Counted from the stretch's first letter, positions 5,169 to 31,509 are shown. The stretch: 32,000 nt of DNA from Acutalibacter sp. (GCA_020025775.1 JAHHRN010000001.1:345348-377347); one strand, 5' to 3'. Notes: generated from the sequence alone by a model not told the origin. Program-made: numbers and translations.

Positions 5169-5412
5169 GTGTTCTGCCTCGTTTCTTTTCTAATAAAACC
5201 ATAGTTTAAAAATGCGAATAAAAATGTATATCATTATATTTTAGGCGTTTTATAGACATTTGTCAACAGGAGCAGAGGGGCAGGAACAGTGCATTTTAGT
5301 GATAATGAACATAATTTTAAAAAGTGTTGTTCTAGGATTTCTGCAATTTCGTGCACTTCGGACTATGGGTGAAAGCGCTTGATTCCAAACACCGAAGAAA
5401 GGACGAAAAAGC

Positions 5413-5910
5413 ATGGAAAAAAAGAAGAAACTCAGTAAAAAGCAAGCGGATTTTTGCAGATTTTATGTAAAAACGCGCAACGGCAGGGAAGCGGCACGCG
5501 CCGCAGGCTTTCCCGTTTTTCCCGAGCAAACGGCAAATAAGCTGCTCTCGGAAAAGGCGGTGCAAAAGGAGATTGCCGCCCTCGAAGCCGAGGAAAAAAC
5601 CGTGGAGGCGGAGCTGATTGCAGGCTATCGCCGTTTGGCGTTCGGCTCGGCGGCAGATGCGGTGCGCCTGCTCTTTTCAGAAAATCCCGCCGCGGAATTT
5701 GACCTCGACAGCCTCGATTTATTTATGGTTTCGGAAATTAAGAGACCCAAAACGGGCGGCATGGAGATTAAATTTTTCGACCGCTTAAAGGCACTCGAGA
5801 AGCTGGCGGAATTAAAGGGCGGCGACAAGGAGACGGCAGAGCCCTTCTATAAGGCCCTCGAAAAATCAGCGTTGGCGCTCCAAAACGGCGGTGAAACAGC
5901 ATGCGAATAG
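5413..5910 (+). CDS. terS: phage terminase small subunit
   Basis: 165 aa. The N-terminus LSKKQADFCRFYVKTRNGREAARAAGFPVFPEQTANKLL matches the HTH signature of Terminase_2-type small subunits. It lies immediately upstream of terL and overlaps it (ATGCGAATAG at 5901-5910). Confidence 0.8.
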   Translation: MEKKKKLSKKQADFCRFYVKTRNGREAARAAGFPVFPEQTANKLLSEKAVQKEIAALEAEEKTVEAELIAGYRRLAFGSAADAVRLLFSENPAAEFDLDSLDLFMVSEIKRPKTGGMEIKFFDRLKALEKLAELKGGDKETAEPFYKALEKSALALQNGGETACE

Positions 5911-7166
5911 ACGAATTCACCGAGTTTTCCGAAAAGCAGTTAAAGCTGCTTTGCTGGTGGTGTCAGGACAGCCCCTATAAAAATCGCGATGCGGTCATTT
6001 GCGACGGTGCGGTGCGCAGCGGCAAAACGGTCTGCATGTCGCTGTCGTTCATCTTTTGGGCGTTTTACCGCTTCAATGACACCTCGTTTGCGCTTTGCGG
6101 CAAAACGATTATGGGGCTTCGTCGCAATGTATTAACACCGCTTTTGCCCCTGCTTTCCCAACTGGGCTTTACCTGCAAGGAGCAGGTTTCCAAGCATTAT
6201 TTAGAAATTTCTAAGGGAGAAAGAACCAATCGCTTTTATCTTTTCGGCGGCAAGGATGAATCCTCTGCCGCACTCATTCAGGGTATGACCCTTGGCGGCG
6301 TCATGCTCGACGAAGCGGCACTGATGCCACGTTCGTTTTGCGAACAGGCGATTGCACGTTGTTCCTTAGAGGGCGCAAAGCTCTGGTTCAACTGCAATCC
6401 CGAGCATCCCGCACACTGGTTTTATAAGGAATGGATTTTGAAAAGTGAGGAGAAAAACTGCCTATATCTCCATTTTCAAATGGAGGACAATCCCACGCTT
6501 TCCGAAAAGACCCTACAGCGTTACCGAAGCCTTTACAGCGGCGCGTTTTATAAGCGCTTCGTTTTAGGGCAGTGGGTGGCGCAGGACGGGCTTGTTTATC
6601 CGTTCTTTGACTCGACCTATCTCTTTGATGCACCGAAAACATGCAGTCGTTATATCGTTTCGTGTGACTACGGCACAGTCAACCCGACTTCTATGGGTCT
6701 TTGGGGCGAAAAGGACGGCTGTTGGTATCGCTTGAAGGAATTCTATCACGACTCAAAGCAGAAAGGCTTTCAAATGACCGACGAGGAATATTACCGTTCG
6801 CTTTGCACTCTCGTCGGCTCACGTAAGGTGGAGCGTGTGATTGTTGACCCCTCGGCGGCATCCTTTATCGCGTGCATCAAGCGGCACGGCAAATTCACCG
6901 TGACCCGCGCGCAAAACGATGTTTTAAGCGGTATTCGCAAGACCTCGGATGCACTCAAAAACAAGGAGATTCGTATAACCAAGGAGTGTACGGATGCTAT
7001 TCGCGAATTTTCACTTTATCGCTGGGATGAAAGTGCCCGTTACGATGCGGTGAAAAAAGAGCATGACCACGCTATGGATGATATCCGTTATTTTGTGACA
7101 ACAGCACTCGAAGCGGAAGAGGACAGCTTCTTTGTTCTCACGACCGCGAGAGAAGGGAGGTGCTGA
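5901..7166 (+). CDS. terL: phage terminase large subunit
   Basis: 421 aa with Walker A GAVRSGKT and Walker B GGVMLDEAA. The C-terminal nuclease-domain acidic motifs VIVDPSAASF and DHAMDDIRY are characteristic of PBSX/SPP1-like TerL. Confidence 0.9.
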   Translation: MRIDEFTEFSEKQLKLLCWWCQDSPYKNRDAVICDGAVRSGKTVCMSLSFIFWAFYRFNDTSFALCGKTIMGLRRNVLTPLLPLLSQLGFTCKEQVSKHYLEISKGERTNRFYLFGGKDESSAALIQGMTLGGVMLDEAALMPRSFCEQAIARCSLEGAKLWFNCNPEHPAHWFYKEWILKSEEKNCLYLHFQMEDNPTLSEKTLQRYRSLYSGAFYKRFVLGQWVAQDGLVYPFFDSTYLFDAPKTCSRYIVSCDYGTVNPTSMGLWGEKDGCWYRLKEFYHDSKQKGFQMTDEEYYRSLCTLVGSRKVERVIVDPSAASFIACIKRHGKFTVTRAQNDVLSGIRKTSDALKNKEIRITKECTDAIREFSLYRWDESARYDAVKKEHDHAMDDIRYFVTTALEAEEDSFFVLTTAREGRC

Positions 7167-7167
7167 T

Positions 7168-8364
7168 TTGGCTATTTTAGAAAGATTCAGAAAATCCAAA
7201 ACTAGAAAAGAACAGAAAGAGCCTGTGCTTTCGGTAGAGGGACAGGAAAAGAAGCATCCGTTTTTACTGCTTTCAGAATATGTCGCACCGCCGTCTGTGA
7301 GCGGGGATTTATTTTTATCTTTGCGCGAAGCGATTCCGATTATTGACGCGGCGATTACGAAGCTCGTTAGGCTCACCGGCGGCTTTTATGTGGAATGCGA
7401 TTCCCCGCGTTTTCAAAAGGTTTTGGACCGCTTTCAGGAGGAAATCCCCTCGGACTGCGGCAGTGTATCGCTCCAAAGCTTTCTCGATACCTATTTTGAG
7501 GAGCTTTTGACCTTCGGCACGGCAGTGGCGGAAATGGTAAAGGATGAGGACGGCGCGATTTCCTATTTATATACCGCGCCGCGTAAGGATTACCTTTTAA
7601 AGCGCTCCAAAACGGATTTCAAACGGGCACAGGTGCTTTTAAATGACGGCGGCAACGGGACTCCACTTCCGAGACAGGAAAATTTCCTCACTACGGCGCT
7701 CAACGCCCAGCCCGGTGCGGTATACGGCACATCCATTTTAGAGGGCTTGCCGTTTGTCAGCTCCGTGCTTTTGAAAATCTATGAATCCATAGAGAAAAAC
7801 TGGGAGCGTGTGGGCAATGTGCGTTTCGCCGTGACCTATAAGCCGCCGGAGGATTTGGGCGGTAAGGCGTTCGCGAAAGAACGTGCGATGCAGATTGCTA
7901 ACGAGTGGAGCAGTGCGATGCGTAGCGCCGAGGTGCGCGATTTTGTGTCGGTCGGGGATGTGCAGATTAAAGCTATCGGTGCGGATAATCCGATTTTAGA
8001 CAGTGAAATCCCCGTGCGCCAGATGCTCGAGCAGATTGTGGCGAAGCTCTCTTTGCCGCCGTTCATGCTTGGTCTTTCCTGGTCGACCACCGAACGTATG
8101 GCGGCGGAGCAGGAGGATGTTTTAACAACGGAGCTTTTGCACTATCGCCGTGTGCTCACCCCTGTCATCCAGCAAATCTGCAAAACGCATTTGCTCGCCT
8201 TCGGCTACACGGGTGAGATTCGCGTGCACTGGAAGGACATCACCTTAGAGGATACACTCGACAGGGCACAGGTACGCAATTTGGATGCCAAGACACAGGA
8301 AATCTTAGAAAAGCTCTCGAAAGAGGGCAAAAAAGAGGAGGAAGAACATGCAAAAGAGCTTTGA
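7168..8364 (+). CDS. putative phage portal protein
   Basis: About 400 aa, directly between terL and the protease gene, with an acidic C-terminal tail. I prefer the TTG at 7168 because GGGAGG lies 7 nt upstream and it sits 1 nt after the terL stop. The ORF track begins at an in-frame TTG at 7132. The function is assigned from size and position only. Confidence 0.6.
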   Translation: MAILERFRKSKTRKEQKEPVLSVEGQEKKHPFLLLSEYVAPPSVSGDLFLSLREAIPIIDAAITKLVRLTGGFYVECDSPRFQKVLDRFQEEIPSDCGSVSLQSFLDTYFEELLTFGTAVAEMVKDEDGAISYLYTAPRKDYLLKRSKTDFKRAQVLLNDGGNGTPLPRQENFLTTALNAQPGAVYGTSILEGLPFVSSVLLKIYESIEKNWERVGNVRFAVTYKPPEDLGGKAFAKERAMQIANEWSSAMRSAEVRDFVSVGDVQIKAIGADNPILDSEIPVRQMLEQIVAKLSLPPFMLGLSWSTTERMAAEQEDVLTTELLHYRRVLTPVIQQICKTHLLAFGYTGEIRVHWKDITLEDTLDRAQVRNLDAKTQEILEKLSKEGKKEEEEHAKEL

Positions 8365-9316
8365 CGCGAATGCGGCGGGCACAGAGGTGCCGAGCGACGA
8401 AACCATGGCGCTCATCAACCGCTTTACGCAAAAGGAGCTGGGAAAGGATGAGGTCTTTGTCTTTTCCGCCGTGCTTTGCGACAACGAAATCGACCGTGAT
8501 TTCGAACGCTTTTCGGCAGAAAGCTTAAAAGCCCTTGCCCCCTTGTTTTTGGGCAAGACGGCAATTAAAAATCACAGCATGAATGCCGATGACCAGAGCG
8601 CCAGAACCTTTAAAACGGAGGTGATTTGCGACGAAACACGAAAGAACAGCCTCGGCGAGCCTTACACCTATTTAAAGGCTTATTGCTATATGCCGAGACT
8701 GCCCAAAAACGAAGAACTGATTGCGGAAATCGGTGCAGGTATTAAAAAGGAGGTCTCGGTGAGCTGTGCGGTGCAAAAGGCGGTTTGCTCCGTCTGTGGT
8801 AAGGATGAAAGACAGGAGCCTTGCCAGCATCGCCGCGGCAGAATCTACGGCGACACCCTTTGCCATTTCAGCTTAGAAGAGCCGACCGATGCCTATGAGT
8901 GGTCCTTTGTTGCCGTGCCTGCACAGAAAAATGCGGGTGTGACCAAGAGCTTTTCTCTCGAAAAGGTTTTGGAAAAGGCGGTGAAAACCGAAAAGGCCGA
9001 GGGAATTTATCTCACCAAGGCCGAAGCCGGTAAACTGCAAAAGGAATTTGCGGCGTTAAAGGCAAAAGCGGCGGACGGAGAGCGTTATTTGGCGGTATTG
9101 CGCGAAACGTTTCTGAAAGAAAGTGCTAAGGCGTTCCCGACGTTTTCCGAGGAAATGCGTCAGGCGATTTGCCGTGACCTTTCCACCGAAGAGCTGCAAA
9201 CCGCCTGCGAGGCATTTAAAGAAGCCCGCAAAACGGCGCAAATCCCCGTACCGCTTTTGGCGGCAAGAAAAAACACAGGTGAAAAAGCCGTGCAGAATAC
9301 GGCATTCAAATTTTAA
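8348..9316 (+). CDS. putative prohead protease fused to a scaffold-like C-terminal domain
   Basis: 322 aa with a strong SD (GAGGAGG) 6 nt before the ATG. The N-terminal half has S78-like elements: DRDFERF, GKTAIKNH and VSVSC. The C-terminal ~120 aa is A/K/E-rich and helical-looking (KAEAGKLQKEFAALKAKAADGERYL), like a scaffolding domain. It occupies the canonical position between portal and capsid. Confidence 0.5.
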   Translation: MQKSFDANAAGTEVPSDETMALINRFTQKELGKDEVFVFSAVLCDNEIDRDFERFSAESLKALAPLFLGKTAIKNHSMNADDQSARTFKTEVICDETRKNSLGEPYTYLKAYCYMPRLPKNEELIAEIGAGIKKEVSVSCAVQKAVCSVCGKDERQEPCQHRRGRIYGDTLCHFSLEEPTDAYEWSFVAVPAQKNAGVTKSFSLEKVLEKAVKTEKAEGIYLTKAEAGKLQKEFAALKAKAADGERYLAVLRETFLKESAKAFPTFSEEMRQAICRDLSTEELQTACEAFKEARKTAQIPVPLLAARKNTGEKAVQNTAFKF

Positions 9317-9336
9317 AAGAGAAAGGAAATGTTATT

Positions 9337-10338
9337 ATGGCACAATTTGAAACTTTAAAACTCGACAAGGGTCTTTATACTTCTGCAAAGGGCTTTACCG
9401 CAGAACTGGAAAATGTGGACCCGTCCGAAAACTATAAGGGCACCGCCTTAGAGGGCCTCGATGCGTTTGAAAGACAGTTAAAGCGCTTTGACATTAAAAT
9501 TCACGGTGCCGGCAGCGACAGCATCGAGAAATTCTTTAAAACCAGCGACAGCGCCGCGCTTTTCCCCGAATATGTGGCACGTGCCGTGCGCAAGGGCTTG
9601 GAGGAAGCGGACGTCTTGAAGGACCTTATCGCCACCAAGACCAATATCAACGGCATGGATTACCGCACCATCGCTTCCGTGCCGACCGATGCGGAAAAGG
9701 AACTCAAAATCACTGCCGAGGGTGCGGCAATTCCCGAAACTGCCGTTCATACACAGGAAAATCTTGTGAAGCTTAAAAAGCGCGGCAGAATGCTCGTAGC
9801 CTCCTATGAAGCCCTCCGCTTCCAGAGACTCGACCTTTTCACCGTCACCTTGAAGCAGATTGGCGCGTACATCGCCAGAACCCAGCTCAAGGATGCTGTG
9901 GAGGTTCTCGAAAAGGGCGACGGCAACAGCAATCCCGCACCTGTGGTCAGCCTCAATTCTAAGCCCCTCGACTATGCGGCTTTGGTCGATTTCTGGAACG
10001 GTTTCGACCCTTATGCACTCAATACCATGATCGCCGCACCCGACAGAGCGGCGGCAATTCTCAAAATGCCCGAAATGCGCGACGCGGCGGCAGGTCTTAC
10101 CTTCCACGGCACCGGCAAGGCAGTGACACCCTTCGGTGCAAAGCTCTTAAAGAGCGCGGCTGTACCGACCGGCAAGCTCATCGGTCTTGATAAGACCTGC
10201 GCCCTCGAAATGGTAACTGCCGGCGGCATTTTGACCGAATACGATAAGCTCATCGACAAACAGCTCGAGCGTGCGGCGATCACCCAGATTTCCGGCTTCT
10301 CCAAAATCTACACAGACGCGGCTAAGGTGCTCGCTTAA
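9337..10338 (+). CDS. phage major capsid protein (HK97-fold type)
   Basis: 333 aa in the canonical position after protease/scaffold. The C-terminal region (GLDKTCALEMVTAGGILTEYDKLIDKQLERAAITQISGF) resembles the conserved end of HK97-like capsid proteins. The SD is AAAGGAAA. Confidence 0.7.
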   Translation: MAQFETLKLDKGLYTSAKGFTAELENVDPSENYKGTALEGLDAFERQLKRFDIKIHGAGSDSIEKFFKTSDSAALFPEYVARAVRKGLEEADVLKDLIATKTNINGMDYRTIASVPTDAEKELKITAEGAAIPETAVHTQENLVKLKKRGRMLVASYEALRFQRLDLFTVTLKQIGAYIARTQLKDAVEVLEKGDGNSNPAPVVSLNSKPLDYAALVDFWNGFDPYALNTMIAAPDRAAAILKMPEMRDAAAGLTFHGTGKAVTPFGAKLLKSAAVPTGKLIGLDKTCALEMVTAGGILTEYDKLIDKQLERAAITQISGFSKIYTDAAKVLA

Positions 10339-10355
10339 CGCCGGGAGGTGGAGAG

Positions 10356-10718
10356 ATGCTGGATACCATTCAGATAGCCGGGATTCTTATGCGGTTCGGC
10401 GGCCTCTCCAAGGAAGAGCTTGCCGATGCCATGCCCGTGGTCGCGGTTTGTGCCGCCCAGTGCTTTAAAAGACTGAAAGACCCCAAATTTGCGAGCGAGC
10501 CTGCTGTCTTAGAGGCGGCGGCAGCGATTGCCAATTATCGCCTTTTACTGCGTTCCCCGAAGCTGCGCGAGGGCGAAACTGCATTTCGTGCCGGAGAGGT
10601 CAGTGTGCACAGCAGTCCGCAGGTGCTTTTGGAAGCGGCTGTGTGTCTGCGGGATGACTGTCTGCTTGCCGCCGCACCGTATTTAAAAGACGATGATTTC
10701 GTCTTTGCGCAGGTGTAG
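10356..10718 (+). CDS. putative head-tail connector/adaptor protein
   Basis: 120 aa, Ala-rich and helical-looking, first gene after the capsid gene. This is a position- and size-based call (gp6/gp15-like). The SD is GGGAGGTGGAG. Confidence 0.4.
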   Translation: MLDTIQIAGILMRFGGLSKEELADAMPVVAVCAAQCFKRLKDPKFASEPAVLEAAAAIANYRLLLRSPKLREGETAFRAGEVSVHSSPQVLLEAAVCLRDDCLLAAAPYLKDDDFVFAQV

Positions 10719-10720
10719 CC

Positions 10721-11020
10721 ATGGAGTTTAACAGCAGTTATGCGCGCAGTGTGTATCTCGAGGACGGGGCTTGGAAGTCTCCGCTTTTTAAAGCGTATTT
10801 ACAGCCGACCAAGCGCCTTCCGGAAGAAGATGTTACGCTTCTCGGCAGAATCGTGCGCGAACCCTATCTTTACATAGGGCCTGCCGCGCATGATCTTAGT
10901 AGACTTTCGAAAGAAGCTCGCCTTGTGGACAGCGAACACAGTCGCTATCGCATTTTGCACGCGCAGAAAATTTATAAAGGGGATAAGGTCTTTTACATTC
11001 GGGCCATTTTAGAAAAATAA
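10721..11020 (+). CDS. putative head-closure protein
   Basis: 99 aa. Its start lies 2 nt after the previous stop (TAGCCATG). The function is assigned from size and position only. Confidence 0.35.
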   Translation: MEFNSSYARSVYLEDGAWKSPLFKAYLQPTKRLPEEDVTLLGRIVREPYLYIGPAAHDLSRLSKEARLVDSEHSRYRILHAQKIYKGDKVFYIRAILEK

Positions 11021-11038
11021 CGGAAAGGAAGAGGAACT

Positions 11039-11470
11039 ATGCTTGTAGCCAGTGGCTATTTAGATAAGCTGGTGCAGGATTTCACAAGCGACCCGAGCTT
11101 TTCGGATTTGGATTTTAAAATCGCTTATGAAAACAGCATTTGCACAACGCCGGTGTCGAAACCGATTGTGGCATTCACAACCGATAAAACAACTATCGGC
11201 GAACAGCTGACACGCTATAATCCCGACGGCTCTCAGATTATTTCGAAGGGTCGAATTGTGGATACAGTGGTGAAAGTGGCAATTTTTGTGCCGTATGAAA
11301 GCGGCGCGGTCAAATCGTTTCAGGTCTTTGACCGGGTGTTTACCAAGTTGCTCTATGAGTCGGCGTTGAATATCACCGGCGCCCATTGCTATGACAGCAA
11401 CTATAACAAAAAGTGCGGCGCCTTGGAGCTGAACGCGGATTTCACCATTCACACAAGAGAAGAAAAGTAA
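11039..11470 (+). CDS. putative neck / head-completion protein
   Basis: 143 aa, the last gene of the operon, with SD GGAAAGGAAGAGG upstream and a terminator after it. The function is inferred from position only. Confidence 0.35.
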   Translation: MLVASGYLDKLVQDFTSDPSFSDLDFKIAYENSICTTPVSKPIVAFTTDKTTIGEQLTRYNPDGSQIISKGRIVDTVVKVAIFVPYESGAVKSFQVFDRVFTKLLYESALNITGAHCYDSNYNKKCGALELNADFTIHTREEK

Positions 11471-11475
11471 AAAAA

Positions 11476-11505
11476 GGCTGTGCCCGGAAAGGGTACAGCC
11501 TTTTT
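11476..11505 (+). terminator. rho-independent terminator closing the head/packaging operon
   Basis: 10-bp stem GGCTGTGCCC (11476-11485) / GGGTACAGCC (11491-11500) with one G-U pair and loop GGAAA. A T-run follows at 11501-11505, and an A-run precedes the stem. Confidence 0.8.
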
Positions 11506-11735: not shown

Positions 11736-11863
11736 TGTTCAAAACTTTCTAAGTTTCTTATTTTTCGTGATTTTTGGGCTACTTATTAACACTTTGAACA
11801 GAGTTTTGAACATTTTTGAACATTAAAAAGCTATACTCTCTGTATATTTACAGTTTGTTCAAA
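11736..11863. repeat. five-copy TTTGAACA motif array in an AT-rich intergenic region
   Basis: There are three direct copies of TTTGAACA at 11793-11800, 11805-11812 and 11815-11822, with start-to-start spacing of 12 and 10 nt. They are flanked by two inverted copies, TGTTCAAA, at 11736-11743 and 11856-11863. Confidence 0.6.
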
Positions 11864-11994
11864 TTTGGTTAAAATCCCATATTGACAAAAAACGCCGTTT
11901 TTTGTTGCACAAAATTCCCGGAAATTTTTGTATAGTATTCTTAAAAATGCCGATACTAAAGCTTGAAACAAACAGAAAGAAAAGGAGCGTTTTT

Positions 11995-12264
11995 ATGGTG
12001 AAAGGCATCAATCGACAGGTTCTCGAAATTCGGGAAACCGGCTCTAAATATTTTGAACGCGCTTTTTTCTTTGTGAATCCCGATTATGCAAAAACCGACG
12101 AGAAAAAACTGCGCGCGGCGGCTGAATCCGCCCTTTGTTCTGCCGACCGTGTGCCGAAAACTGGGAAGCGAAAGGCAAAGGGTAAGCAGATTTGCCTTTT
12201 AACGCTTTCCTTTTTAGGGGCGGCAGGCGGTGGTGCACTTCTAACGGCACTCTTTCTGCATTAA
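11995..12264 (+). CDS. small C-terminally anchored membrane protein, unknown function
   Basis: 89 aa counted from the ATG at 11995, which has AAAGGAG 7 nt upstream. The N-terminus is soluble (MVKGINRQVLEIRETGSKYFERAFFFV). A basic stretch KTGKRKAKGK precedes a single C-terminal TM, ICLLTLSFLGAAGGGALLTALFL. Confidence 0.5.
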   Translation: MVKGINRQVLEIRETGSKYFERAFFFVNPDYAKTDEKKLRAAAESALCSADRVPKTGKRKAKGKQICLLTLSFLGAAGGGALLTALFLH

Positions 12265-12471: not shown

Positions 12472-15141
12472 TTATTTCGCATTGGCTTTGTGCTTCGTCA
12501 CAGCTCTTTGAATCAGCTTAACAATTTCAACTAAGGGAACAATCGCGAAGGCGAGTGCCATAGCTGTAATATATTCTACAAAGCTGATGTGTGTGAAGCC
12601 GAAGGCGTCGGAAAGGCCAGGGCAATAGATAACGAAGGTCGTGGTGATAAAGGACATGAGCGTGGAGAGCGCCAAGAACTTGTTGTGGCTGCCCTGCATC
12701 GCCATCTTAATTACGGAGCCTTTTTGCGAACGCATGTTGAGCGAGTGGAAGATTTCGCACATGGACATGGTTAAGAATGCCATGGTCATGCCGTCGGGGC
12801 TGTTTACAATTTCCCATCTGCCGGCTTCGATGAAATGACCGATGAAGTAAGCGGCAAGGGTTAAAATGGTAACGAATAAGCCCTGGTAAGCGACGTCGAA
12901 GCCGACACCGCCGGCGAAAATACCGTCTGTTGCTTTACGGGGCGGACGCTGCATGAGGTCTTTTTCACCCTTTTCCATGCTGAGCGCGAGTGCCGGGAAG
13001 CAGTCGGTTACAAGGTTAATCCAAAGTAAGTGTACGGGCTGTAAAATGGTGAAGCCTAAGAGGTTTGCGGCGAAAATCGAAAGTACCTCACTGAGGTTGG
13101 ATGCCAAAAGGAACTGGATAGATTTACGAATGTTGTCGTAAATACGTCTGCCTTCCTTAACAGCGGAAACGATGGTTGCGAAGTTATCATCCGCAAGAAC
13201 CATGTCGGCAACGTTCTTGGTAACGTCTGTACCGGTAATACCCATGCCGACGCCGATGTCTGCACTCTTAATGGAGGGTGCATCGTTTACGCCGTCACCG
13301 GTCATCGCGGTAACTAAGCCCTGTTTCTTGAGGGCGTTAACAATACGAACCTTGTGCTCCGGCTGAACTCGTCCGTAAACAGAGTAGTGAAGTACGGTCT
13401 TTTCGAAATCTTCATCCGAAATTTCGTCAAGCTCTGCACCGGTAAGAGCTTCGTCTGCGCTCTTTACAATGCCAAGCTCGGTAGCAATGGCTACTGCGGT
13501 GTCCTTATGGTCGCCGGTAATCATAATCGGACGGATGCCTGCTCTGCGGCACTCGTCGATAGCGGCTTTAACTTCGGGACGAACGGGGTCGATCATACCG
13601 ACAAGACCTAAGAAAACAAGGTTGTTTTCAAGGGCTTCGGGGCTTTGGTCTGCGGGCATATCGTCATACGTTTTGAAGCTACAGGCGAGTACGCGCAATG
13701 CCTTATCGGCAAAGGCTTTGTTGTGGGCGAGGATTTCTGCTCTGTCCTCGGCGGTGATGTCGCGGACTTTGCCGTCCTTTAAAATCTGGGTGCAATCCTT
13801 TAAGACAACATCGGGTGCGCCCTTTGTGAATTGCAGGAAGCCTTCTTCGGTTTTGTGAACGGTGGACATCTTTTTACGCATGGAGTCGAAGGGTGCTTCG
13901 CCTACACGCGGCATGGTTTTTAAGAGGTCATTCTTATTGAAGTTGAGAGAAAGACCATAGTTTACGAGTGCGGCTTCTGTCGGTTCACCGACCAAATTGC
14001 CGTCATCGTCGATATGCACGTCGGTGCAAAGGGTCATGCCCTGTGCCAAAAGCTCTTCATTATCGCCGTAATGCTCTACAACGGTCATCTTATTCTGGGT
14101 AAGTGTACCGGTTTTATCGGAGCAGATGACCTGTGCACAGCCGAGGGTTTCAACGGCGGTCAAGCGGCGAACAATCGCATTTTTCTTAGACATATTGGTA
14201 ACGCCGATAGAAAGCACGACGGTAACAACAGCGACAAGACCTTCGGGAATCGCGGCAACAGCCAGAGAAACCGCAATCATGAAGGAATTCAAGAGGAAGG
14301 AGAAATCGGGCACACCGCCGGTTACATAGCGGCGAATGATGTCGAAAATGAACATAAACACACAAATGCCCAAAACGATGCCGCTGAGGATTTTACTGAG
14401 CTGTGCAAGCTTTAACTGTAAGGGCGTCTGGGAATCCTTTGCATCGGCAAGTGCGCCTGCAATTTTACCCATTTCGGTGTCCATGCCTGTCCCGGTAACG
14501 ACCGCTTTACCGTGGCCGTATACAACGGAGGAGCCCATATACATCATGTTTTTACGGTCACCGAGCGGAACATCCTTCTGGTCACCTAACAGGAGTGTAT
14601 CAATTTTCTTTAAAACGGGTACGCTTTCGCCGGTCAGCGCGGCTTCTTCAATCTTGAGGCTGGCGCTTTCCAGGATTCGTGCATCGGCGGGTACGGCATC
14701 GCCGGCTTCTAAGAGAATCACATCGCCGACAACGAGGTCAGAGCTGTGGATTTCCATAACCTTGCCGTCACGCATGACTTTAGAGGTCGCAGCAGCCATT
14801 TCCTGTAAGGCTTCAATGGCTTTTTCGGCTTTGCTTTCTTGATATACGCCGAGCACAGCATTCAAAATAACAACAGCTAAGATGATGATAACATCGGTCG
14901 GGAATTCGTGCTCCATAGCGGCGGTGATAGCCGAAATGGCTGCCGCAGCGATTAAGATTAAAATCATTGGATCACAAAATTGTTCAAAAAGACGGCGCCA
15001 GATGCTTTTCTTTTTGCCCTCTTTTAACTTGTTCGGTCCGTTTTCGGCGAGTCTTTTTTCCGCTTCAGCCGCTGTTAGACCGGTTTCTTGGGTTTGAAGT
15101 TCGCTAAAAACTTCGTCTGTTGACTGCAAATATGCTTTCAT
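12472..15141 (-). CDS. P2-type cation-transporting ATPase (Ca2+/Mn2+ exporter type)
   Basis: 889 aa with the P-type motifs TGES (ALTGESVPV), phosphorylation site CSDKTGTLT, KGAPD, MITGDH and hinge TGDGVNDAPS. The TM architecture is SERCA/PMCA/YloB-like. Confidence 0.95.
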   Translation of the reverse strand: MKAYLQSTDEVFSELQTQETGLTAAEAEKRLAENGPNKLKEGKKKSIWRRLFEQFCDPMILILIAAAAISAITAAMEHEFPTDVIIILAVVILNAVLGVYQESKAEKAIEALQEMAAATSKVMRDGKVMEIHSSDLVVGDVILLEAGDAVPADARILESASLKIEEAALTGESVPVLKKIDTLLLGDQKDVPLGDRKNMMYMGSSVVYGHGKAVVTGTGMDTEMGKIAGALADAKDSQTPLQLKLAQLSKILSGIVLGICVFMFIFDIIRRYVTGGVPDFSFLLNSFMIAVSLAVAAIPEGLVAVVTVVLSIGVTNMSKKNAIVRRLTAVETLGCAQVICSDKTGTLTQNKMTVVEHYGDNEELLAQGMTLCTDVHIDDDGNLVGEPTEAALVNYGLSLNFNKNDLLKTMPRVGEAPFDSMRKKMSTVHKTEEGFLQFTKGAPDVVLKDCTQILKDGKVRDITAEDRAEILAHNKAFADKALRVLACSFKTYDDMPADQSPEALENNLVFLGLVGMIDPVRPEVKAAIDECRRAGIRPIMITGDHKDTAVAIATELGIVKSADEALTGAELDEISDEDFEKTVLHYSVYGRVQPEHKVRIVNALKKQGLVTAMTGDGVNDAPSIKSADIGVGMGITGTDVTKNVADMVLADDNFATIVSAVKEGRRIYDNIRKSIQFLLASNLSEVLSIFAANLLGFTILQPVHLLWINLVTDCFPALALSMEKGEKDLMQRPPRKATDGIFAGGVGFDVAYQGLFVTILTLAAYFIGHFIEAGRWEIVNSPDGMTMAFLTMSMCEIFHSLNMRSQKGSVIKMAMQGSHNKFLALSTLMSFITTTFVIYCPGLSDAFGFTHISFVEYITAMALAFAIVPLVEIVKLIQRAVTKHKANAK

Positions 15142-23981: not shown

Positions 23982-25403
23982 ATGACTGAGCAGGAAAAAA
24001 AAGCAAAAAAAGAAGCTGCTGCCCGCGAAAAAGCCGAAGCAAAAGCAAAAAAGGCTGAAGAAAAAAAGCTGAAAGCAGAAGCTAAGAAGGAATTACAGGA
24101 AGAAAAGAAAAACGAAACGAAAAATACATCTGATTGGAAGAAAAATATCGTAACGATTGTGCTCGTTGTTTTGGCAGTCGCCGCTCTGATTGGTGTAGCG
24201 GTTTTGAAATTCGCCCCTGCAAAGCTGCCGGGCGGTACAGCGCAAAATCCCGAGGCAGGTCCGCTTACCACGGAGCTTTCTTCGGTTGTGCTCTCCAAAA
24301 AGATTACCAAAATTCCGCTCATGCCCACCGATATTCCCACGATTTCCTATACTGCCGATGCCGCAGGCAACATTGTCTATTATGAATGGAACGGCAAGGA
24401 ATATGTGGAAATCGAGCCGACCGGCAATATGGATTACACCCTCACCCTCAGCGGTCAGAAAATTGCCGTACACATTCCCTATATCGAGCGTGACGGCGTG
24501 CTTACCGGCTTCGGTCTCTTTACCGCCGACCAGAATCAAGAAAATGTTTATATTTATAATTTCATCATGTTCAAGGTGCAGAACCTGCCCGAAGCTTTTA
24601 AAAAGGACGGTTACTGCCTCTTGCTCATGCACACCGACAAAACCAAGGCATACACCTTAGACCCTGTTTGGGAGCAGGGCTTCATTTTGAACCGTTCGAA
24701 TGGCGAAATGCAGGATTTCTTAAATGACCGCAGCCAGATGGTCAGCCAGGACGGCGGTATTCGTCGCGCCCAGTATAAAATTACCGAGCGTGCTTTGCAA
24801 TCGGACAGCGCAAATCTTCTTTTCTGTTCCTCGAGAGATAACGAACCCGATGCCGAAGGCGTTCGCCGTACCGATGTTTATAAAAAGGACGGCAGAAAGG
24901 ACGTTATGGTTTTACAGGATGTGTTAGACGATTACGTAAAACCCCTCTCCAACGACAGCTTCGCCTTTATGCGTAAGGCAGAGGACGGCTTCTATACCGC
25001 TGAGTTTAAAAACGGCGAGGAACAAAAGCTCTACAGCTTCAAGCGTCCCTTGGGTGCCGGTTATTTGCGTAGCGGTGACTATCTGCTCGACAAGGAAGAC
25101 GGTAAAATTTACACCACCTACAATACCAATGTGATTGAAACCAAAGGCTTCAGACTCAATCCGCAGGTATTTGCCGTAAGCCCCAAGGAAAAACACGTGG
25201 TTATGGCAGGCACCTCTGCGAATGCGTTTGACTATTATATTTACATTTACAATGCAGACAGCGAGCAGTTCCTTTCCTTTAAGGATGAAAACTATGCACC
25301 GCACTACAACCTGCGTTTTATCGACGAAAAAACCGCTACCTACTACGCTATGAAGCTGGACGGCTATGAAAATGTTGTGGTAGACGTATCTAGAATTAAA
25401 TAA
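23982..25403 (+). CDS. membrane-anchored protein of unknown function with Lys/Glu/Ala-rich cytoplasmic N-terminus
   Basis: 473 aa. The N-terminal ~50 aa are low complexity (KKAKKEAAAREKAEAKAKKAEEKKLKAEAKKELQEEKK). One TM follows (IVTIVLVVLAVAALIGVAVL), then a ~390-aa extracytoplasmic domain rich in beta-type residues (Y/T/V/N). No motif was recognised. Confidence 0.65.
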   Translation: MTEQEKKAKKEAAAREKAEAKAKKAEEKKLKAEAKKELQEEKKNETKNTSDWKKNIVTIVLVVLAVAALIGVAVLKFAPAKLPGGTAQNPEAGPLTTELSSVVLSKKITKIPLMPTDIPTISYTADAAGNIVYYEWNGKEYVEIEPTGNMDYTLTLSGQKIAVHIPYIERDGVLTGFGLFTADQNQENVYIYNFIMFKVQNLPEAFKKDGYCLLLMHTDKTKAYTLDPVWEQGFILNRSNGEMQDFLNDRSQMVSQDGGIRRAQYKITERALQSDSANLLFCSSRDNEPDAEGVRRTDVYKKDGRKDVMVLQDVLDDYVKPLSNDSFAFMRKAEDGFYTAEFKNGEEQKLYSFKRPLGAGYLRSGDYLLDKEDGKIYTTYNTNVIETKGFRLNPQVFAVSPKEKHVVMAGTSANAFDYYIYIYNADSEQFLSFKDENYAPHYNLRFIDEKTATYYAMKLDGYENVVVDVSRIK

Positions 25404-29463: not shown

Positions 29464-30156
29464 TTAATTCCCTCCTTCGATTTTATAGCCCTGCCCCCAA
29501 ACCACCTTGATATAGCGCGGCGCGGCAGGGTCGATTTCTAATTTTTCACGAAGATGGCGAATGTGTACGGCGACGGTGCTTTCTGCGCCGAAGGGGTCAT
29601 CCTTCCAAACCGCTTTATAGATTTCCCCGGGGGAAAAGACCTTACCCGGATGCTGTAGAAGTAAATGCAAAATCTCATATTCTGTGGGGGTCAGAAGGAC
29701 AGGCTCTCCGTCCACGGTGACGGATTTTTCGCTGTTATCGAGCGTAATGCCACCGATTTGCAGGGCATTTTTGGTGCTTTGCGTGCCGCCGAGTGTCATA
29801 TAACGGCGCAGCTGCGATTTGACTCGAGCCAAAACTTCAACCGGGTTAAAAGGCTTGGTGATATAGTCATCCGCCCCTATGTTCAGCCCTAAAATTTTGT
29901 CGGTGTCCTCGCTTTTTGCCGTCAATAAAATGACGGGCACATTGGAAAAACGGCGAATCTCGACCATGGCGCTGACGCCGTCCATTTCCGGCATCATAAT
30001 ATCCATTAAAATCAAATGGATTTCTTCTTTACGCATGGCTTCGAGCGCTTCTTTTCCGTTGTAGCAGAGCACGGTGGAGTAGCCTTCGGCTTTTAAATAA
30101 ATGTCCAGCGCGCGGACAATATCTTTTTCGTCGTCGCAAATCATGATTTTGTACAT
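29464..30156 (-). CDS. OmpR/PhoB-family response regulator
   Basis: 230 aa. The receiver domain has ICDDEKDI, LILMDIMMPEMDG and LLTAKS. The winged-helix output domain has VAVHIRHLREKLE and VWGQGYK. Its stop lies 2 nt before the kinase start. Confidence 0.95.
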   Translation of the reverse strand: MYKIMICDDEKDIVRALDIYLKAEGYSTVLCYNGKEALEAMRKEEIHLILMDIMMPEMDGVSAMVEIRRFSNVPVILLTAKSEDTDKILGLNIGADDYITKPFNPVEVLARVKSQLRRYMTLGGTQSTKNALQIGGITLDNSEKSVTVDGEPVLLTPTEYEILHLLLQHPGKVFSPGEIYKAVWKDDPFGAESTVAVHIRHLREKLEIDPAAPRYIKVVWGQGYKIEGGN

Positions 30157-30191
30157 AGTTTCATCCTCCGCTATACAGTATAAGCTAAATC

Positions 30192-30234
30192 TCTTTAAGA
30201 AAAAAGAGGGAAAATCTTTAAGAAATTCTTAAGA
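30192..30234 (-). promoter_or_regulatory. repeated TCTT(T)AAGA motif upstream of the response-regulator gene (possible autoregulatory site)
   Basis: TCTTTAAGAA occurs at 30192-30201 and 30215-30224 (23-nt spacing), with TCTTAAGA at 30227-30234. The copies lie 36-78 nt upstream of the RR start codon. Confidence 0.3.
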
Positions 30235-30434
30235 TGCCTAAAATTACGGCTTTAATAAGAAAAGCAGCGAAGGATTATCTCAAATCTTTAATAATTGCAA
30301 ACACATAAGAAGGACCATACACGTCTTTTGTTATATCGCTAGGTTTGGACGGATGCAGTTCTATTGCTGTTTGAAAAACTCTACCTTCATTTTCTTTAAC
30401 TTTTTCCCATATTTTTTCTTTCGTTAATATAATT

Positions 30435-31301
30435 TTATTCTTCCCAGTGTACTTTTAAATCGTTATAAGCAAAAAGCGGAATATCGTATAAATCCCCAAA
30501 GAGCTCATAAATCTGTTCCGAAGATTTCAAAATGGCATCCATGTTGGTATTGTGTTTTCGTATGGGAATATTAAATATCGGTAAAAAAGCTGTATCTCGT
30601 ACACGTTTATCCGGTACACAACACCATTTTCCGGGGATGTTTTTATATATATTTTGGATGCGCAATTCTCGAAGCACCAAAGGAACTTTAATTTTCATTG
30701 CCTTTTTACCGACACTTAATCCTTCCAATTTTGATATATAGGAAATGAAAATGGCATAGTTATTTTTATTTTCTGATTCACTTAATTTCTTTTTAATATC
30801 TTCCCAGTTTTTTGCTAAAACATATAAGCTGTCATAAAAGTCCGAGCGAAATGAAATATCTTTTCTTGGATGTTCTGCATCAGGTCTTTGTGGCACATTA
30901 TAATGAATACATACTTCTTTACTTCTGATTTTTCTTAAAGTTTTTGCCTTCTTAACAAAATCTAAATCATTCCAAATGGTTGGATGATCTAACGCATACA
31001 TTTTTAAATAAATCACAAAACAAGCGCTGTTTTCCCATTGCCCCGCTCTTGACCAACAAGATGCTAACACGAATAGCAAAAACAGATCATTTTCTTTATG
31101 TAAGTCTAACGCCATAGATTGATGCGTTTCCTTGGAGCAAATATGAAAATCCCTCACCCAACCAGCATAGCTCTTTTCATTGGTAAGATTAATATATGGC
31201 AATTGTTCTTTATTTTCGATAGTCTTTTTTATTAACTTATCAATACCAGTTTGCTGAATCATTAAATCACATCCTTCATTTAGTTTCAGTATACCAAGCA
31301 C
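30435..31301 (-). CDS. hypothetical protein (orphan, AT-rich codon usage)
   Basis: 288-aa ORF with a GTG start in the track. An ATG at 31262 with GAAGGA upstream is an alternative start. I could not recognise a family with confidence. Confidence 0.55.
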   Translation of the reverse strand: MLGILKLNEGCDLMIQQTGIDKLIKKTIENKEQLPYINLTNEKSYAGWVRDFHICSKETHQSMALDLHKENDLFLLFVLASCWSRAGQWENSACFVIYLKMYALDHPTIWNDLDFVKKAKTLRKIRSKEVCIHYNVPQRPDAEHPRKDISFRSDFYDSLYVLAKNWEDIKKKLSESENKNNYAIFISYISKLEGLSVGKKAMKIKVPLVLRELRIQNIYKNIPGKWCCVPDKRVRDTAFLPIFNIPIRKHNTNMDAILKSSEQIYELFGDLYDIPLFAYNDLKVHWEE

Positions 31302-31449
31302 GAAAAATTTTTCAAGAAAGCAAACGAAAGAGTCCTGAAAAAAGGACTCCGGATTTTAAAGCGCTTGTTTATAAAGAACTATTAAGTATAATTAAAAGCA
31401 AGTAAGGAAAATATCATTGTTATTTTTTATTATATATAGGAGAAGAATT

Positions 31450-31509
31450 ATGTTTGCATTTTTTATTTGCTTTGTCTACGGATTTATTCGAGGACTCTTA
31501 AAAGGTTGA
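31450..31509 (+). CDS. candidate 19-aa hydrophobic peptide (type I toxin-like or small membrane protein)
   Basis: ATG at 31450 with AGGAG (31438-31442) 7 nt upstream, encoding MFAFFICFVYGFIRGLLKG. A candidate promoter lies upstream: TTGTTT (31365-31370), 16 nt, TATAAT (31387-31392). A long hairpin terminator follows. Confidence 0.3.
   Translation: MFAFFICFVYGFIRGLLKG

Follow-up and report, generated by a model that had tools for sequence, protein, structure and literature searches.

The 32,000-nucleotide stretch analysed here, a contiguous piece of an Acutalibacter sp. genome (GCA_020025775.1, JAHHRN010000001.1:345348-377347) referred to as the window throughout, carries an operon for a phage-like head and its DNA-packaging machinery. 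The operon comprises eight tightly coupled and uninterrupted open reading frames (ORFs), all on the plus strand at 5413-11470. The start of terL and the stop of terS share ATGCGAATAG at 5901-5910, and the terL stop codon TGA (7164-7166) is directly followed by the TTG start of the portal gene at 7168, which has a GGGAGG motif 8 nt upstream and is also chosen by an independent gene caller, yielding a protein of 398 aa. The portal gene overlaps the next gene, g4, by 17 nt, and the subsequent intergenic gaps are 20, 17, 2 and 18 nt. At the operon end, an intrinsic terminator (11471-11505, plus strand) combines a 15-bp hairpin with a downstream U-run (-26.1 kcal/mol, z = -7.1). A preliminary description of the locus had proposed eight co-directional, coupled genes free of frameshifts and internal stops, with the terS/terL overlap, a TTG start at Shine-Dalgarno distance and a terminator hairpin at the end, and the coordinates, the intact ORFs and the folding energy agree with it in all these points.

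Profile searches detect no tail, lysis, integrase, repressor/regulator or replication genes among the ORFs of the window, so that the absence of such genes, first noted for the neighbourhood of the operon, extends across 32 kb. Every other sizeable ORF is a housekeeping gene or lacks a phage-structural match. The G+C content, initially described as equal to that of the flanking genes, is indeed close, with a slightly higher value in the block (0.511 vs 0.487), and the codon usage of the block correlates with that of the flanks at 0.84.

The first two genes encode both terminase subunits. The small subunit TerS (165 aa, 5413-5910) matches Pfam PF03592 Terminase_2 (4.2e-14, residues 7-135 of 165) and phrog_51 (9e-16); the Terminase_2 match begins at profile position 1 and includes the N-terminal region, i.e., the domain is full-length. 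The large subunit TerL (421 aa, 5901-7166) belongs to the PBSX family, as indicated by a match to NCBIfam TIGR01547 above the cut-off (1.4e-50), and is further recognised by Pfam Terminase_6N (2.7e-12) and phrog_2 (1e-46). Its Walker A (GAVRSGKT) and Walker B (VMLDEA) motifs and the acidic nuclease motifs DPSAASF and DHAMDDIRY are intact. The third gene (398 aa, 7168-8364, TTG start) encodes the portal, with a match to phrog_30703 'portal protein' at 9.9e-112. Thus, the identities proposed earlier for TerS and TerL, including the TerL motifs, are supported by profile matches and motif reading, and the protein then called portal-sized is a portal.

The product of g4 (322 aa, 8348-9316) matches phrog_16951 (7e-95). 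In an alignment of 30 sequences, its N-terminal domain is strongly conserved, with invariant His76 and Ser137, and is followed by a variable helical region and a conserved PQL...N..FKF tail. One family member matches Pfam PF14550 Peptidase_S78_2/XkdF at 4.6e-5, while a sequence-profile search of g4 against PDB sequences gave no match. Because of the invariant His76/Ser137 pair, the XkdF match of the relative and the variable helical C-terminal part, g4 is read as a putative XkdF-like (S78_2) prohead protease fused to a scaffold-like region, in line with the protease/scaffold assignment initially suggested. The protein also contains an invariant Cys/His cluster (C147, C150, C159, H161 and C172; window 8786-8866, residues 147-172), which resembles a zinc ribbon inserted within the protease-like domain. 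To our knowledge, such a cluster has not been described for HK97-type prohead proteases.

The major capsid protein (333 aa, 9337-10338) has an HK97 fold and matches Pfam PF25209 Phage_capsid_4 (7.4e-19) and phrog_3922 (3.2e-96). An AlphaFold2 model built from 61 sequences has a pLDDT of 68.5, and Foldseek places the capsid of EcCI2, a capsid-forming phage-inducible chromosomal island (cf-PICI), at the top of the matches (2e-10), together with HK97, the gene transfer agent (GTA) RcGTA and encapsulins, with TM-scores of 0.45-0.5. The HK97-like capsid suspected from the beginning is therefore supported by both profiles and structure. Although the fold matches encapsulins, an encapsulin nanocompartment was rejected, because genes for a portal and for both terminase subunits are present in the operon and under selection. 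In relatives of types B, C and D (see below), the gene that follows g4 and precedes the capsid gene encodes a 111-aa virion structural protein (phrog_4588; e.g., L043 9648-9983), which is absent from the window, where the gap between the two genes (9316-9337) is merely 20 nt.

The last three genes encode small proteins that had been grouped as connector-sized (99-143 aa). For g6 (120 aa, 10356-10718) and g7 (99 aa, 10721-11020), both conserved in architecture types A-D, the role follows from gene order only: by position, g6 is probably the head-tail adaptor and g7 probably the head-closure or stopper protein. They are the fastest-evolving conserved genes of the block, with 25-46% identity across clades vs 62-83% for the capsid protein. 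For g8 (143 aa, 11039-11470) the initial grouping does not hold, as this protein has a tail-terminator (gpU/gateway/collar) fold and is no head connector. Its AlphaFold2 model, built from 51 sequences (pLDDT 78.8, pTM 0.72), matches almost exclusively tail-terminator, gateway and collar proteins when compared with the PDB by Foldseek, with the E217 gateway protein (8fvh_M) at 2.8e-6; further structural matches are found in phages Pa193, T1, T5 and lambda (gpU) and in the tailocins pyocin R2, diffocin and monocin. In BFVD, the matches are annotated as 'neck terminator', 'tail terminator' or 'tail completion' proteins. The TM-scores range from 0.45 to 0.6. The seemingly 'head-only' operon therefore ends in a protein that sits atop the tail tube in every solved particle. 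Sequence-profile searches of g4, g6, g7 and g8 against the PDB returned one weak match, to the N-terminus of the Listeria phage PSA receptor-binding protein, in the fusion region of the type-B proteins described below. Pfam scans of g6, g7 and type-B fusion members gave scattered weak matches only (Minor_capsid_1, Caud_tail_N and DUF7483).

The operon has an ABC exporter pair on one side and a P-type cation ATPase gene on the other, as stated in the preliminary description. A conspecific locus (GCA_003704445.1, contig RCNI01000030.1) shares 97.4% nucleotide identity with the window, and among named relatives, Candidatus Fimenecus and Acutalibacteraceae metagenome-assembled genomes from human, chicken and ruminant guts are the closest. 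All eight genes are present with identical lengths in the conspecific contigs L084-L086 and L175 and in two sister species, L082 and L083, whose capsid proteins are 89% and 86% identical to that of the window, respectively. In these strains and sister species, the block is located between the ABC exporter pair and the DUF4015/Rnf genes, and it adjoins the ABC pair in 18 species-level loci. The P-type cation ATPase gene (12472-15141), which stands between a small ORF and the DUF4015 gene, is the sole gene-content difference at the locus; it is present in the window and in L082 and absent from L083.

Over the 18 species-level loci, the mean identity is 71% for both the head proteins and the ABC pair. 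Averaged over TerL, portal and capsid, head-protein identity rises and falls with that of the ABC pair (Pearson 0.95, Spearman 0.87; 153 pairs, which are not independent of each other). Between species, head proteins are 64-89% and flanking proteins 58-88% identical. Within the species, the block differs by 156 nucleotides and 15 amino acids in 2001 codons, corresponding to a ratio of nonsynonymous to synonymous substitution rates (dN/dS) of 0.031, compared with 0.070 over 3941 codons of the flanks. Each of the eight genes has a dN/dS of 0.12 or less, including g8 with 0.09. These data show that the block is inherited vertically with its host and that all eight genes are under strong purifying selection. 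The initial view of a chromosomally fixed, maintained module, set between the same exporter and ATPase-side genes in relatives, is thereby confirmed, with the ATPase gene as the only variable element.

This genomic setting bears on two alternatives. The missing tail, lysis and regulatory genes and the progressive gene loss in relatives would be expected of a decaying, functionless prophage remnant. Such a remnant is contradicted by the selection data: the eight ORFs are intact and of equal length in every strain and sister species examined, their dN/dS of 0.03 is below that of the housekeeping flanks, and capsid proteins remain 67-97% identical across the clade, where ABC exporters are 58-96% identical. 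No complete prophage was found at this site in any relative examined, so that the earlier distinction from a decaying prophage arm stands. A 46.7-kb record, MT835508, was considered as a prophage at the same site and rejected, since its secY-adk-map-rpsD-rpoA-rplQ flank is bacterial chromosome. The second alternative is a capsid-forming phage satellite, i.e., a cf-PICI-like mobile island, or another mobile element. Like cf-PICIs, which are the closest system by gene content, the block combines TerS, TerL, portal, protease, HK97-fold capsid, adaptor and connector proteins, with the EcCI2 capsid as best structural match. A packaging module of its own is thus present that is the same in kind as the cf-PICI morphogenesis block, as had been pointed out previously. 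However, cf-PICIs are mobile elements with integrase, AlpA, replication and regulatory genes, which package their own genome from a cos/pac site. In contrast, integrase, AlpA, primase/rep and repressor genes are absent from the 32 kb, as are att-like repeats, the chromosomal site is shared across species, the block co-diverges with its flanks and with the host, and its G+C content and codon usage are near those of the host. A mobile island is contradicted by the fixed site and the co-divergence. Taken together, intact ORFs, shared site, low dN/dS, co-divergence and composition therefore argue for excluding both a decaying remnant and a mobile island, each of which we consider highly improbable.

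The block belongs to a very large family. Relatives of its capsid protein fall into more than 8000 protein clusters, and members of the family were counted in at least 596 species representatives of GTDB and 375 contigs of IMG/VR. Four architectures can be distinguished. Type D, found in high-G+C Oscillospiraceae-like contigs (~13 kb), encodes a terminator, a sheath (Phage_sheath_1/1C), a tube-sized gene and baseplate genes that resemble Mu gp43-48 and PBSX XkdP-U, and it lacks a long tape-measure gene. In two type-D loci (L097 6129-11699 and L141 6318-12964), a sheath of 340-401 aa, a tube-sized protein of 128-129 aa and a full baseplate are encoded, and the tape-measure position is occupied only by an ORF of 182-194 aa, too short for a normal tape measure; an unusually short contractile tail is predicted for these relatives. 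Type C, found in Ruminococcus-like genomes including the complete genome of Ruminococcus sp. JE7B6, has six baseplate genes after the head genes (LysM/DNA_circ_N, hub, Mu Gp45-like, sheath-initiator/gp25-like, Baseplate_J at 1e-48 and gpI-like) and no sheath. In type B, which is present in many Acutalibacteraceae, the last gene encodes a 270-300-aa fusion of the g8 terminator domain with an extra C-terminal domain. Type A, represented by the window, ends with the bare 143-aa terminator. The homology of g8 to the N-terminal half of the type-B fusions is evident from alignments, and in types C and D a g8 homologue precedes the baseplate or sheath genes.

The C-terminal domain of the type-B fusions (L043 11723-12565 and ~35 other loci) comprises ~135 aa and has weak DUF7483 matches, while the fusion junction weakly matches the N-terminus of the receptor-binding protein of Listeria phage PSA. 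Judged from these matches, the fusion may be a terminator ring with its own receptor-binding domains, forming a minimal 'tail'.

In a midpoint-rooted neighbour-joining tree of TerL and capsid protein from 126 loci, the four architectures are phylogenetically coherent, with type D basal and type A monophyletic and derived. Type A is sister to L097, its closest tail-bearing relative, a contig with a compact sheath-tube-baseplate set from which a miniature contractile tail is predicted. The tree pattern is most simply read as tail genes having been lost repeatedly from a contractile ancestor of the PBSX kind. The statement that the block stands alone therefore needs to be qualified: it holds at the locus and does not hold in evolutionary terms, as the block is the reduced end of a family with baseplate and sheath genes in cis. 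Lysis and regulator genes were not found in cis in any of types A-D.

By ancestry, the closest system is PBSX of Bacillus subtilis, which packages host DNA as ~13-kb fragments. Both share the TIGR01547 TerL, a g4 protein related to the XkdF protease and the gene order terS-terL-portal-protease-capsid-small proteins, and relatives of the block carry a sheath and an XkdP-U-like baseplate (LysM, hub, spike, gp25-like, Baseplate_J and gpI-like). Unlike PBSX, the window lacks sheath, tube, tape-measure, baseplate and fibre genes, which are present in part in the type-C and type-D relatives, as well as the xre/xpf regulators and the xhlAB-xlyA lysis genes, and no LexA box is found near the promoter. 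Furthermore, the capsid of the window belongs to Pfam Phage_capsid_4, and the family is order-wide, whereas PBSX is confined to one genus.

Upstream of the operon, alignments identify a promoter-like box, GGACTATGGGTGAAAGCG (5360-5377, plus strand), 36 nt upstream of the terS ATG. All four architecture types share it, as the family consensus CTWWDKRTGRRAGG, at 35-60 nt before terS. A -35-like element precedes the box by about 17 nt and is located within an inverted repeat, the sequence of which differs between clades. The conservation of the box suggests that it functions as a promoter. It does not convincingly match the consensus of sigma A, B, E, F, G, H or K, and no sigma factor is assigned. 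A second copy of the box is not present in the window, a position-weight-matrix scan of the family loci gave background matches only, and the exact motif has eight unrelated coding-sequence matches in IMG/VR. A nearby minus-strand TTGACA-17-TAAAAT is the promoter of the divergent ABC operon. No LexA (Cheo) box was found near the operon and no Rfam element in the window, and the 5' leader folds no better than shuffled sequence (z = -1.0). Because the box is kept in all types, with no LexA box, Rfam element or second copy found, the family appears to share one dedicated mode of control by factors encoded elsewhere.

Several repeats are located close to these elements. The AT-rich spacer after the terminator contains five TTTGAACA boxes (window 11736-11863), namely three direct copies at intervals of 12 and 10 nt and two inverted ones that flank them. 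The boxes closely precede a sigma-70-like promoter (TTTACA-17-TAAAAT, 11847-11875) and an 89-aa ORF (11995-12264), the product of which has a basic stretch, one C-terminal transmembrane helix and no family match. Boxes and ORF are conserved in both sister species (L082 and L083), and in further species of types A and B, similar TGTGAACA direct repeats precede terS. The TTTGAACA and TGTGAACA boxes may be a shared site of the response-regulator type. In most type-A relatives (L003-L039), the interval from the exporter promoter to the head operon contains tandem TTAACCG-N-TTAA repeats; these look like an exporter operator and do not occur in the window.

An intact, host-inherited operon that is under selection despite the loss of tail genes looks like a domesticated DNA-packaging device rather than a dead prophage. 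The initial interpretation of the locus as a chromosomally fixed device of this kind held in all checks of fold, synteny, selection and prophage context. We consider it likely that the block is a domesticated PBSX-like and GTA-like element, i.e., a viriform, which has been reduced to head and neck. A PBSX-like defective myophage would have become fixed in the chromosome of an Oscillospirales ancestor, and in Candidatus Fimenecus and related Acutalibacteraceae, sheath, tube and baseplate would then have been lost from the cluster, leaving the head-and-neck half. In the proposed mechanism, the dedicated family-wide promoter would drive a single transcript from terS to the terminator; the g4 protease-scaffold and the HK97-fold capsid protein would assemble a procapsid on the portal; and TerS and the PBSX-family TerL would fill it with DNA by a headful mechanism. 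Because replication and excision genes are absent, the substrate would have to be chromosomal DNA. The portal vertex would subsequently be closed by g6, g7 and the terminator-fold g8, giving a DNA-filled, tail-less capsid with a neck. Its release and delivery would depend on functions encoded elsewhere, be it tail or lysis genes at unlinked loci or tails taken from other phages, unless there are none at all. That the block builds capsids and packages DNA is suggested by the selection on all eight genes.

Several points weigh against this interpretation. Transcription, particle assembly, packaged DNA and transfer are inferred, for this element as for its whole family. Tail, lysis and regulator genes were not found in cis within the 32 kb, and 'tail-less' holds only in cis. 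The TM-scores of the capsid and g8 models are only moderate, and g6 and g7 match no family in Pfam, PHROG, NCBIfam or PDB sequences. The 153 pairwise values behind the co-divergence lack independence, and the direction of tail loss is only inferred, because two proteins went into the tree, which was built by neighbour joining and rooted at the midpoint. Finally, the full-length TerS is unlike the TerS proteins of RcGTA and of FpGTA from Faecalibacterium prausnitzii, which lack a DNA-binding domain; because TerS keeps its full Terminase_2 domain, packaging could be site-directed instead of random.

How a particle of this kind would reach a recipient separates the further explanations. A special case of the favoured interpretation is a multi-locus GTA, in which the block would be the head locus and the sheath, tube, baseplate, fibre and holin-endolysin genes would be unlinked in the same genome, as in RcGTA and FpGTA. 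The retention of g8 points in this direction, as a tail terminator that caps the tube in every solved structure is kept under purifying selection (dN/dS 0.09), and a split architecture is documented for FpGTA, whose operons I and II are ~125 kb apart (PMC12946183). Moreover, the tail-bearing relatives also lack lysis and regulator genes in cis, and the family therefore already depends on unlinked genes. Yet such genes are absent from the 32 kb and from +/-10 kb of about 60 loci of types A and B, no further copy of the promoter box turned up in the window or the family loci, and the fusion of the type-B terminator to an extra C-terminal domain suggests that the neck has become the distal end of the particle. 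A single-protein scan for tail loci in trans with the Baseplate_J protein of L097 matched only the query itself; since this protein is only 22-28% identical to other family members, similarity ranking cannot single out type-A orthologues. A multi-locus GTA is regarded as possible but less probable than not.

Alternatively, the block could be a domesticated 'tail pirate', in which immobile, host-owned capsids become infectious only by docking free tails of unrelated prophages or phages. A precedent exists in cf-PICIs, which make tail-less, DNA-filled capsids (Alqurainy et al. 2023; bioRxiv 10.1101/2025.02.11.637232); once released, these capsids bind free phage tails, and adaptor and connector proteins determine the tail specificity (bioRxiv 10.1101/2025.02.11.637232). 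The shared packaging module, the EcCI2 capsid as best match of the capsid model and the rapid evolution of g6 and g7 would agree with such a lifestyle. On the other hand, tails that bring a terminator ring would be incompatible with a head already equipped with one, and no helper phage is known, which makes this explanation unlikely.

A similarly low probability is assigned to a repurposed capsid that does not serve gene transfer but extracellular DNA or nutrient release, DNA protection in stationary phase or sporulation, or phage decoy and defence. The closest precedent for the phenomenon is provided by the head-only RcGTA-like clusters of alphaproteobacterial endosymbionts, in which capsid, portal and terminase are kept under purifying selection, tails are missing and other functions have been proposed, gene transfer being difficult to justify there (PMC9254644); some of these lineages retain stopper and terminator genes (George et al. 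2022, PMC9254644). The absence of a delivery apparatus in cis would fit such a use. The endosymbiont clusters differ in that they derive from an RcGTA-type siphovirus-like lineage and belong to another bacterial phylum, whereas the block is of the PBSX-type, myovirus-like lineage, its hosts are free-living gut anaerobes, and a graded tail reduction is visible among its relatives. Against repurposing, terminases and neck proteins are kept under selection, which argues for stable DNA packaging, whatever its purpose, and positive evidence is lacking for any specific alternative function.

By host and ecology, the closest system is FpGTA, with which a GTA-like element was for the first time found in a bacterium of the human gut (PMC12946183), and for which tail-less-looking 40-nm capsids with ~8.5-9 kb of host DNA have been seen (Borodovich et al. 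2026, PMC12946183). Both systems have a gut Oscillospirales host and a chromosomal operon that starts with terS-terL-portal, both lack replication and integration genes, and in both the tail and lysis genes are not all within the head operon. FpGTA, however, combines an 'N4-gp56 family' capsid with a tail nozzle and encodes a Prp-like protein in the interval from portal to capsid (PMC12946183, Supplementary Data 2). The capsid of the window has no match to NCBIfam N4-gp56 at E <= 0.1, its protease-scaffold is XkdF-like, its tail-bearing relatives are myovirus-like and not podovirus-like, and a nozzle gene is absent. In addition, the TerS of FpGTA lacks a DNA-binding domain, whereas that of the window is a full-length Terminase_2 protein. 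Homology to FpGTA was rejected on capsid family and gene content, and the differences in capsid, protease, TerS and tail type therefore indicate parallel domestication rather than membership in the FpGTA family. The block shares with GTAs in the broad sense (viriforms) that it is a host-chromosomal cluster of phage-structural genes devoid of replication, integration and lysogeny-control genes, inherited vertically and under purifying selection. The Oscillospirales family and its reduction series were not found described in a search of the full-text literature, which cannot prove them unpublished.

The remainder of the window contains ORFs for a NUDIX hydrolase and a metallo-beta-lactamase-fold hydrolase, in addition to the ABC exporter pair, and for Rnf subunits, in addition to the P-type cation ATPase and the DUF4015 protein. 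Other flanking ORFs encode Rpe, ProA/ProB, a HAD phosphatase, MgsA, a two-component system and a few proteins without matches. A membrane protein encoded at 23982-25403, with a K/E-rich N-terminus and one transmembrane helix, belongs to the same cluster as the product of a gene near the tail end of L072; having no phage match, it is left out of the element. The region 30000-31500 is strongly AT-rich (G+C 0.32-0.33 vs 0.48 for the window) and may be recently acquired DNA. It contains an ORF of 288 aa on the minus strand (30435-31301), which adjoins the two-component system and has no PHROG match.

Members of the family also occur in virome records. Five family-bearing contigs originate from Mexican preparations of faecal virus-like particles (VLPs), and all were deposited as 'Bacteriophage sp.'. 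Four of them were mapped: two belong to type C, one to type D and one, with ~20 kb of plain chromosome on each side, to type A. The 46.7-kb record (L001, GenBank MT835508.1), deposited as 'Bacteriophage sp.' from a faecal VLP virome, carries a type-A block that is bordered by secY-adk-map-rpsD-rpoA-rplQ, MgtC and MCRA hydratase genes and, at its opposite end, by the ABC exporter pair and Rnf genes. Because the ribosomal protein operon adjoins the block, this record is really bacterial chromosome. The presence of the VLP contigs is equally compatible with packaging of host DNA, contamination or a choice of contigs on account of their phage-like genes. For the related families Ruminococcaceae, Oscillospiraceae and Christensenellaceae, measurements on faecal VLPs have shown that host DNA is packaged in a GTA-like manner (PMC12946183). 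According to recent long-read virome work, much of the bacterial DNA in faecal VLPs comes from Oscillospirales with a GTA-like pattern, and a gene cluster has been assigned only in Faecalibacterium (PMC12946183). Spline coefficients for Acutalibacteraceae (PMC12946183, Supplementary Data 4) cannot be read as VLP enrichment and were therefore left unused. Since the present family is distinct from FpGTA and occurs in at least 596 species representatives, it is a concrete candidate for part of the unexplained packaging in Oscillospirales.

In a very large GTA-like family, the element described here marks the tail-less end. Loci of this family are routinely called proviruses or 'Bacteriophage sp.', and virome catalogues are inflated as a consequence, as exemplified by MT835508. 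As the extreme case, the window makes it testable what a capsid-plus-terminase machine serves after its tail has been lost. It is a tentative and rather doubtful possibility that free-living gut Clostridia have retained, over an evolutionary depth of genus to family level, a machine of their own for tail-less, DNA-filled capsids with an adaptor-stopper-terminator neck, in genomes that encode no cognate tail. If this is true, the capsids would either dock onto the tails of unrelated phages or serve a purpose that does not require injection, and the series from type D via types C and B to type A would record how a functional gene-transfer particle was stripped of its contractile tail step by step.

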